DNA of 64,000 nt from Candidatus Micrarchaeota archaeon (GTDB lineage Archaea > Micrarchaeota > Micrarchaeia > Anstonellales > Bilamarchaeaceae), in assembly GCA_040754495.1 (NCBI GenBank), contig JBFMCO010000022.1:24908-88907 (forward strand). Reading direction: 5' to 3'. The translations under genes were made by a program, and so were the position numbers. How positions within the stretch are numbered: position 1 is the stretch's first letter; every line of letters begins with the position of its first letter. This document shows, one piece after another, positions 36,083-36,546 of the stretch. The notes below the pieces were generated by a model that worked only from the letters and a program-made list of their open reading frames with translations, had not been told where the DNA came from and did no database searches.

Positions 36083-36145
36083 CACCCGGAAAACAGAACT
36101 CGGGCCCGGGGCACTGAACCGGAAACCGGCTGCCGGGGGCTGGAT
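36083..36145. repeat. 7-nt periodic repeat array (GGAAACN family)
   Basis: GCACCCG GAAAACA GAACTCG ... GAACCG GAAACCG GCTGCCG. Confidence 0.65.
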
Positions 36146-36321
36146 GCAGGAAAAAAATAGCGGGGGGTAGATTTGAACCCCCAGCCTTTTTATAATCGGA
36201 ATCCTGGCCCCGGAGAAAAAGGCTAGGGTTAACCCAAAAACCAGTTTCTCGGAACCCTGAACCCGAAACGGGAAACCGGAAACAGGATGCAGGAAAAAAA
36301 TAGCGGGGGGTAGATTTGAAC
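36142..36321. repeat. 37-bp direct repeat (36142-36178 and 36285-36321) duplicating the tRNA-iMet 3' end
   Basis: GGATGCAGGAAAAAAATAGCGGGGGGTAGATTTGAAC occurs twice, 143 bp apart. Confidence 0.9.
36243..36290. repeat. 7-nt periodic repeat array
   Basis: GGAACCC TGAACCC GAAACGG GAAACCG GAAACAG downstream of tRNA-iMet. Confidence 0.75.
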
Positions 36322-36405
36322 TACCGGTCCCTGGGTTATGAGCCCAGTGGGAACTCCAAGCTTCCCATAGGGCAAATTCTAGATGTTAGAATTTGTTACC
36401 CCGCT
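36301..36405 (-). tRNA. Initiator tRNA-Met(CAU) with a 30-nt intron at position 9/10 (36367-36396)
   Basis: A1-U72 acceptor AGCGGGG/CCCCGCT+A; three G-C pairs in the anticodon stem CTGGG/CCCAG; T-arm GGTAG-TTCAAAT-CTACC. BHB: GGGG/CCCT central helix and 9-bp inner stem CAAATTCTA/TAGAATTTG. Confidence 0.92.
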
Positions 36406-36546
36406 TTGCTTGGAGCACTTTAACCCAGATTGTCCTAACAGAAGTCAGAACGAGAATAATTAGCGGGCTAATGCTTTATAATGGTGATTGAAATTCAGGC
36501 GCTAGATGAAGTAAAAGAGAAAGAAGGAGAAAAGGGAGGAAGAAAC

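Follow-up and report, generated by a model that had tools for sequence, protein, structure and literature searches.

A 30-nt BHB intron at position 9/10 of a micrarchaeal initiator tRNA gene, very probably removed by splicing, and a possible part for the 5' leader in folding its splicing motif

Can an initiator tRNA gene that is interrupted after its ninth nucleotide still be spliced into a normal tRNA, when the motif to be cut borrows one strand of the acceptor stem? The question is raised by a locus on the minus strand (36405-36301) of the window, that is, the whole stretch of 64,000 nt of micrarchaeal DNA analysed here, in which we recognised a tRNA-iMet(CAU) gene made up of a 9-nt exon 1, a 30-nt intron and a 66-nt exon 2 (Table 1). 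Exon 2 starts at G10 and runs through the D arm, the anticodon arm with its CAU and the T arm to CCCCGCT-A73, which is followed directly by seven T residues. Read on the plus strand, the interval held nothing. ARAGORN reported no tRNA anywhere in the window, and the Rfam tRNA model matched the unspliced gene only at model positions 10-63, with 30 bits, a partial match that is expected from an insertion after nt 9.

Table 1. Positions of the features of the initiator tRNA locus, in order of transcription
Feature	Position in the window	Strand	Sequence and basis
TATA-like box	36474-36481	-	TTATAAAG; ~76 nt upstream of A1; from the sequence
Leader hairpin	36432-36451	-	GTTCTGAC-N4-GTTAGGAC; recurs in each MFE fold computed for the long precursor
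Leader segment	36421-36428	-	CTGGGTTA; perfect complement of tRNA nt 36-43 (UAACCCAG)
Leader clamp	36408-36415	-	CTCCAAGC; 2 nt upstream of A1; exact complement of D-loop G15-G20a, GCTTGGAG; predicted to pair with D-loop GCUUGGAG as outer helix h'
Exon 1, tRNA nt 1-9	36405-36397	-	AGCGGGGTA / AGCGGGGUA; G4-G7 (36402-36399) are the 5' strand of central helix H
Intron, 30 nt	36396-36367	-	ACAAATTCTAACATCTAGAATTTGCCCTAT; BHB; i1 is the A within the 5' bulge
Intron inner hairpin h	36373-36395	-	9 bp, loop ACAUC (5 nt)
3' strand of H	36369-36372	-	CCCU (CCCT in DNA); intron side of helix H
AU of the 3' bulge	36367-36368	-	last 2 intron nt
Exon 2, tRNA nt 10-73	36366-36301	-	GGGAAGCTTGGAG...CCCCGCTA; Rfam match and identity to exon 2 of G050 and G011
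D-loop target of the clamp	36354-36361	-	GCUUGGAG; inside exon 2
Anticodon	36338-36340	-	CAU; inside exon 2
3' acceptor strand	end of exon 2	-	CCCCGCU, then A73; from the sequence
T7 run	36294-36300	-	directly 3' of A73; probably an archaeal transcription stop

We compared the gene with its intact orthologues in the same genus. When the intron was removed in silico, the product was identical at 75 of 75 positions to the intact 75-nt tRNA-Met(CAT) of two congeners (G050 and G011), exon 2 being 100% identical to that of both. Moving the junction by one base in either direction, to 8/9 or 10/11, gave a sequence that no longer matched the orthologue; 9/10 is therefore the unique junction. The uninterrupted G050 gene is called as tRNA-Met(cat) by ARAGORN and matched as a full tRNA by Rfam, so that removal of the intron restores a canonical tRNA (57.6 bits for the identical G050 sequence vs 30 bits unspliced). 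The bases A1:U72 and G29-G31:C39-C41 together with the CAU anticodon, all read from the sequence, support an initiator rather than an elongator tRNA-Met. In the MAG that carries the window (G000, Candidatus Micrarchaeota, DPANN; 1.63 Mb in 72 contigs, 80% complete) we found no other copy of the initiator gene, bar one 3'-end fragment, and as the only copy the interrupted gene must be expressed. Both the identity of the tRNA and the 9/10 position, as put forward in a preliminary description of this DNA, were thus upheld.

The surroundings of the gene hold a 72-nt direct repeat (36107-36178 vs 36250-36321), with 83% identity and a ~37-nt exact core, the copies lying 143 nt apart. It duplicates the stretch from the T-loop to A73, the T-run and the downstream flank; the downstream copy is without the 5' half and has a G.A that breaks its T-stem. 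To judge from its sequence, the repeat looks like a scar left at the 3' end of the tRNA by recombination or integration. Elsewhere in the MAG, a tRNA-Thr(GGU)-like gene (contig C56, 40504-40799) contains a ~78-nt insert in its D-loop. Only 14 tRNA matches in the MAG reach the Rfam cut-off, which indicates that most tRNA genes here are interrupted.

Next, we considered the splicing motif. The exons and the intron can be folded into a 3-4-3 BHB in which a 4-bp central helix (H), formed by G4-G7 and the CCCT of the intron with one G.U among its four pairs, has a 3-nt bulge on either side, U8 A9|A in one strand and A U|G10 in the other; the cuts would fall after the second base of each bulge. The inner stem (h), CAAATTCTA/TAGAATTTG, has 9 bp and a 5-nt loop. 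The preliminary description had proposed these same elements (CCCT facing G4-G7, an inner stem of 9 bp, and TA|A and AT|G as the bulges), and all of them were recovered on the minus strand; it had also held that cleavage at the BHB gives AGCGGGG-TA-GGGA with a perfect D-stem, and the spliced sequence indeed equals the intact orthologue. The fold has a z-score of -3.2 to -4.1 relative to dinucleotide shuffles.

Other accounts of the insertion were tried and rejected. A cloverleaf with a protruding intron hairpin, which is the MFE fold of the short precursor, would place the splice sites in the multibranch junction and a 6-nt linker and not in bulges, and it leaves the invariant C/U 4-mer described below unexplained. 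A self-splicing group I or II intron was dismissed on size, as 30 nt compare with a catalytic core of hundreds, and on the lack of a match to any Rfam intron family. Membership of a multi-copy (mobile) tRNA-intron family was dropped as well: a blastn-short search against the whole MAG found only the intron itself, the rest of the matches spanning 11 nt or fewer.

We examined the conservation of the BHB in 14 genomes whose introns are recognisably related, aligning exon 1, the intron and the first part of exon 2. H and h were paired in 98.3% of the cells, compared with 28-55% for slid partners. All nine inner-stem pairs had changed on both sides (for instance CAAATTCTA/TAGAATTTG vs CAGAATCTA/TAGATTCTG), and the observed covariation score was reached by 0 of 500 shuffles, although the relatives are not independent, so that these covariation counts, like the distribution counts given below, overstate the statistics. 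H itself was paired in 100% of the genomes, its intron strand reading CCCU, CCCC, CCUU or CCUC with exchanges between G-C and G.U at two positions; because G4-G7 are invariant, variation in H is one-sided only, from C to U or back in the CCCU strand.

To follow the intron through the phylum, we searched 401 sampled Micrarchaeota genomes for a 15-45-nt insert between AGYGRGRTR and GGGNAGYYTGGAGT. An insert exactly at 9/10, homologous or analogous to that of G000, was present in 23 genomes from 13 genera and at least 8 families, and the junction was uninterrupted in 235 of the same 401, a tally that takes in two unpublished genomes (G232 and G079) on which no other result rests. The 9/10 introns are 16-46 nt long, and the hairpins of different families are unrelated. 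Every one of them (23 genomes) ends in a C/U-only 4-mer (CCCT, CCCC, CCTT or CCTC) plus 2 nt before G10, so that H can always form. In the genomes that bear it, the interrupted gene is the initiator gene found, including genomes that are at least 90% complete. For a wider collection scan an initial 17-nt pattern was abandoned as too unspecific, since it returned mostly bacterial chance matches; a stricter pattern, scanned over one genome per species (185,579 species), gave 46 matches. The archaeal ones were almost all labelled Micrarchaeota, two being labelled 'ainarchaeum' and some 'uncultured archaeon', and the bacterial ones look like chance.

Within the genus of G000, the orthologous initiator gene takes several architectures among 40 genomes, 11 of them uninterrupted and reading AGCGGGGTAGGGAAGCTTGGAG. 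Genes of this one genus have from zero to three introns: that at 9/10, one of 35-50 nt at 30/31 and one in the variable region (L040/G018, L047/G016, L044, L043, L049 and L178-L185). For the 30/31 intron, H would be C25-U28:GGUG, without an exon-side outer helix. The sets of introns differ between genes whose leaders are closely related, which indicates rapid gain and loss of introns. Another genome (G012; L054/L251) has an unrelated 32-nt intron in the same place, whose BHB fits 8/9 better (inner stem of 10 bp, H of C3-G6:CUCG, GU|A and AG|A as bulges), which suggests an independent gain one base away. Two Aenigmatarchaeota-type contigs (L269 and L279, labelled Aenigmatarchaeota / uncultured archaeon) hold genes resembling the initiator in which nt 8 is followed by a different insert, of ~30-38 nt, with more inserts downstream; the C/U 4-mer is absent from them, and hence the motif differs.

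At the gene level, the MAG encodes the enzymes that removal of such an intron would call for, an epsilon2-type EndA for non-canonical or relaxed motifs and the ligase RtcB. Its EndA, of 391 aa, has both the N-terminal and the catalytic EndA domains and matches the ARMAN-2 epsilon2 EndA (4FZ2) from end to end (E = 1e-132), an enzyme that cuts strict as well as relaxed BHB motifs in vitro (PMC3239211). RtcB was found with 551 bits, and a full-length archaeal RNase P RNA with 71 bits, under the Rfam cut-off of 84. A second short ORF of 168 aa (contig C31, L211:1276-1782, plus strand) matches the EndA catalytic domain weakly, with 33.5 bits. Taken together, we regard the insertion as a real non-canonical BHB intron that is almost certainly spliced, and consider it highly probable that the locus is a functional single-copy initiator tRNA-Met gene whose 30-nt, protein-spliced BHB intron at 9/10 is removed as proposed; the cleavage itself, the splicing and the A9-G10 junction in the RNA are predicted from the sequence.

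The preliminary description had also noted that the BHB borrows a strand of the acceptor stem, which would oblige the precursor to refold after splicing. Folding energies, computed for 37 C with proteins ignored, agree with this. With a leader of only 2 nt, the BHB conformer of G000 reached -32.7 kcal/mol and the acceptor-stem conformer -43.0 kcal/mol (P(H) ~0, P(acceptor) 0.93), so that the leaderless BHB is worse by ~10 kcal/mol. With a 50-nt leader the values became -55.4 and -56.0 kcal/mol, P(H) being 0.21 and P(acceptor) 0.09. As modelled, these calculations show that the leader makes the BHB fold competitive with the cloverleaf in G000. In the full-length precursors of three other genomes (G001, G002 and G014) the BHB conformer was 7 kcal/mol worse than the acceptor-stem one even with the leader, and the case for those genes consequently rests on co-transcriptional folding. 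We also modelled nascent transcripts that end at nt 26, at which stage the 3' acceptor strand has yet to be made. Their unconstrained MFE fold was the BHB plus a leader helix, the clamp described below, in G000 and most other genes. The nascent P(H) was 0.56-0.97 in 19 of 25 genes, ~0.3 in G132 and G318, ~0.1 in G123 and G134 (where the MFE fold has a 3-bp H) and 0 in G012, the BHB of which is shifted to 8/9.

A closer look at the leader of G000 brought out several elements. From the position of the TATA-like box, the transcribed leader would measure ~45-50 nt, the transcription start being predicted. The box lies 76-87 nt upstream of A1 in genes with the clamp (76 in G000, 85-87 in the others), compared with 47-51 nt in genes without a long leader, which fits a long transcribed leader. 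Further downstream comes a hairpin whose stem differs in congeners yet stays complementary (GTTCTAAC/GTTAGAGC, GTTCTAAC/ATTAGAAC and CTCTAAC/GTTAGAG). The segment CTGGGTTA is a possible second site of pairing between leader and tRNA: 7 of the 8 CTGGGTTA:UAACCCAG pairs appear in the unconstrained MFE fold of the 161-nt precursor, and the segment is partly conserved in congeners, its target being invariant, which we take as weak evidence. Apart from the hairpin arms, both this segment and the clamp complement the tRNA, so that the leader looks like two stretches of the tRNA copied in antisense.

The clamp, the 8-nt complement of the D-loop just upstream of A1, bears most directly on the BHB. As the exon has just three nucleotides 5' of H, the clamp plus C3-G11 is the sole way to an outer helix. 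When we constrained only H, h and the two bulges, ViennaRNA recovered the clamp helix spontaneously. The helices flanking the BHB are thus present in a relaxed form: h has 9 bp, and the outer helix (h') of G000 would be interrupted, consisting of C3-G11, a 4x3 internal loop and then an 8-9-bp helix between leader and D-loop. With such an outer helix the motif is not a textbook hBHBh'. In other families h' is continuous. The preliminary description had mentioned neither this CTCCAAGC:GCUUGGAG helix nor the spread of the intron across the phylum.

Across genomes, the clamp and the D-loop vary in step. At position 16 the pair is C-G in 22 cases, U-A in 3 and U.G in 1, and at position 17 it is U-A in 18, C-G in 5 and U.G in 4. 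Between lineages, the D-loop and leader sequences track each other as GCUUGGAG/CUCCAAGC, GUCUGGAG/CUCCAGAC, GCCUGGAG/CCAGGC and GUUUGGAG/CUCCAAAC. In distant families there is no gap between the leader and A1, and the leader runs on from H in register as an h' of 8-11 bp, with one G.G mismatch.

A second type of leader was found in nine genes that have a 9/10 (or 8/9) intron and are without a proper clamp. These belong to G005, G018, G048, G012, G207, G132 and G318, plus two from the collection scan (loci L035, L040, L182, L054, L195, L196, L197, L252 and L258). In their leader, the 5' acceptor strand is copied imperfectly at 0-17 nt upstream of A1 (AGCGGGGTAT, AGCGGGGA, AGCGGGA, GGCGGGGA, AGCGGGGC or AGCGGGC). 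In the predicted folds the copy occupies the 3' acceptor strand by pairing, leaving the true G4-G7 to pair with the intron, and P(H) rises from ~0 without the copy to 0.14-0.68 with it. On these models, the copy could be functional or could be a footprint of intron acquisition. We also considered whether the upstream copy might be the true exon 1 and rejected this, as the copies are imperfect (AGCGGGA, GGCGGGGA and AGCGGGC, for example) and use of the first copy would separate the bulge from h by a 10-nt loop.

Is the leader complementarity needed for splicing? The intron could be real and cut by EndA with no need of either the clamp or the acceptor copy, the enzyme capturing a minor BHB conformer or cutting co-transcriptionally unaided; the complementarity could then be left over from the arrival of this or an older intron, or could serve 5'-end processing or control the turnover of the initiator precursor. 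Pairing of clamp strength (-12 kcal/mol or stronger) does persist in nine congener genes that lack the 9/10 intron: seven with only a 30/31 intron (G023, G006, G051, G047, G044, G009 and G055), a fully intronless one (G046) and one interrupted further downstream (G041). G049 and G045 show weaker versions of the same leader. The clamp is therefore not exclusive to the 9/10 intron, and in these congeners it could be a holdover or serve another role; a compensated change in G009, a single event, argues for continued constraint on it. The small thermodynamic help in the full-length G001, G002 and G014 precursors fits a dispensable leader too, as does the nascent 5' fold of the acceptor-copy genes, which H and h dominate by themselves. 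However, all 24 distinct 9/10-intron genes, from at least 8 families, have one leader type or the other, the leader either forming a duplex with the D region (-8.6 kcal/mol or stronger) or carrying an acceptor copy that pairs the 3' strand at -11.6 kcal/mol or stronger; among 53 genes without the 9/10 intron there were 0 acceptor copies, and clamp-strength pairing occurred only inside the genus of G000. The covariation seen in several lineages at D-loop positions 16 and 17 and the in-register extension of H in distant families speak against a dispensable leader as well, and we consider such a leader improbable.

That the gene is instead disabled or decaying, with an unremoved 30-bp insertion and a working initiator in the unassembled 20% of the MAG, is very improbable: the incompleteness of the MAG, the truncated second tRNA 3' end 143 nt downstream, a mark of past rearrangement here, and the mere 30 bits of the interrupted gene in Rfam would fit it, but the exons are 100% identical to intact orthologues, the insert is kept with compensatory changes in 13 genera, the interrupted copy is the initiator found in each such genome, even at 90% completeness or more, and an exact BHB geometry is joined by a matching broad-specificity endonuclease encoded in the same genome.

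Returning to a spliced intron assisted by its leader, we propose the following course for G000. The gene would be transcribed with the leader of ~45-50 nt, and the emerging 5' part would fold into a rod. In this rod, the leader CUCCAAGC paired with D-loop G15-G20a, plus C3-G11, would form the interrupted h', followed by the bulge AU|G10, the 4-bp H (G4-G7:CCCU), the bulge U8A9|A and the 9-bp hairpin h. The epsilon2-type splicing endonuclease would then cleave after the second base of each bulge and RtcB would ligate A9 to G10. Once freed, G4-G7 could enter the acceptor stem with C66-C69, the cloverleaf would fold and RNase P would trim the leader. The order of these steps, and the requirement of the leader for splicing, we infer from the folds described above. 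More broadly, Micrarchaeota may solve the conflict between the 4-bp H and the 7-bp, G/C-rich acceptor stem with two convergent cis leaders, a clamp antisense to the D-loop, which becomes h', and a decoy copy that occupies the 3' acceptor strand. We offer this two-leader reading tentatively, as an idea with somewhat less than an even chance of being right.

Non-canonical BHB tRNA introns cut by a three-unit epsilon2 endonuclease have been described in ARMAN-2 (Candidatus Micrarchaeum acidiphilum; Fujishima et al., 2011, PMC3239211; structure 4FZ2, PMC3488258). Our case resembles ARMAN-2 in phylum and enzyme type, and in both, short introns with BHB motifs of the strict or relaxed form break many tRNA genes at non-canonical positions. 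The ARMAN-2 positions given in the text of that paper are 37/38, 53/54 and 59/60, and the text names no 9/10 intron in the initiator (PMC3239211). Unlike the ARMAN-2 introns described there, H is here taken from the 5' strand of the acceptor stem and h' would come from the 5' leader. Non-canonical introns are likewise known from Thermoproteales/Crenarchaeota, including an 'extreme' one at 3/4 (Sugahara et al., 2008, as cited in Yoshihisa, 2014, PMC4090602). According to that review these too are protein-spliced BHB introns outside the anticodon loop that disrupt tRNA helices, so that the precursor must refold, but they belong to another phylum and to an (alpha-beta)2 enzyme. The positions named in the text of the review (3/4, 20/21, 22/23, 25/26, 29/30, 30/31, 45/46, 53/54, 56/57, 59/60 'etc.') do not include 9/10, and we found no description in it of leaders that covary with the D-loop or copy the acceptor strand (PMC4090602). 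Our literature search joining Micrarchaeota, tRNA, introns and initiator returned no paper, '9/10' being unusable as a text query.

Leaders and trailers are used to assemble the BHB when archaeal tRNAs are split or permuted (Chan et al., 2011, PMC3218864). The tRNA-iMet of T. pendens has its promoter at -72, and unusually long leaders betray a split or permuted arrangement (PMC3218864). As in those tRNAs, a flank outside the tRNA would pair with the tRNA or with another flank to create a BHB cut by EndA; the gene described here differs in being colinear and cis-spliced, with a leader that would supply the outer helix only and is presumably removed later by RNase P. tRNAscan-SE 2.0 adds 60-nt flanks to catch introns near tRNA ends (PMC8450103), since an intron this near the 5' end must draw on flanking sequence. 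Crenarchaeota have long been known to have introns of this kind, which have been demonstrated in ARMAN-2 too; what is new here is an outer helix predicted to come from the 5' leader. As modelled, the leader clamp and the acceptor copy are a well-supported, though hypothetical, mechanistic addition.

These results have a practical side, as an essential single-copy initiator is missed by standard finders, ARAGORN giving nothing and Rfam a partial match, and Micrarchaeota genomes of this sort will seem to be without an initiator. They also extend the tolerance of tRNA genes for BHB introns to the 8-10 junction, adjoining the acceptor stem. A single genus with intronless, 9/10-only, 30/31-only, two-intron and three-intron genes and two leader designs is a natural experiment, one that could show how the flanks of a pre-tRNA help a splicing motif to compete with the native cloverleaf; as the ARMAN-2 EndA has been crystallised and is active in vitro, the leader hypothesis is directly testable. 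If the two-leader reading is true, the 5' leader would be indispensable for folding and would force the cell's only initiator tRNA to be spliced before RNase P cleaves it, and the presence of the clamp in intron-poor relatives would point to a wider role in ordering the maturation of the initiator tRNA.
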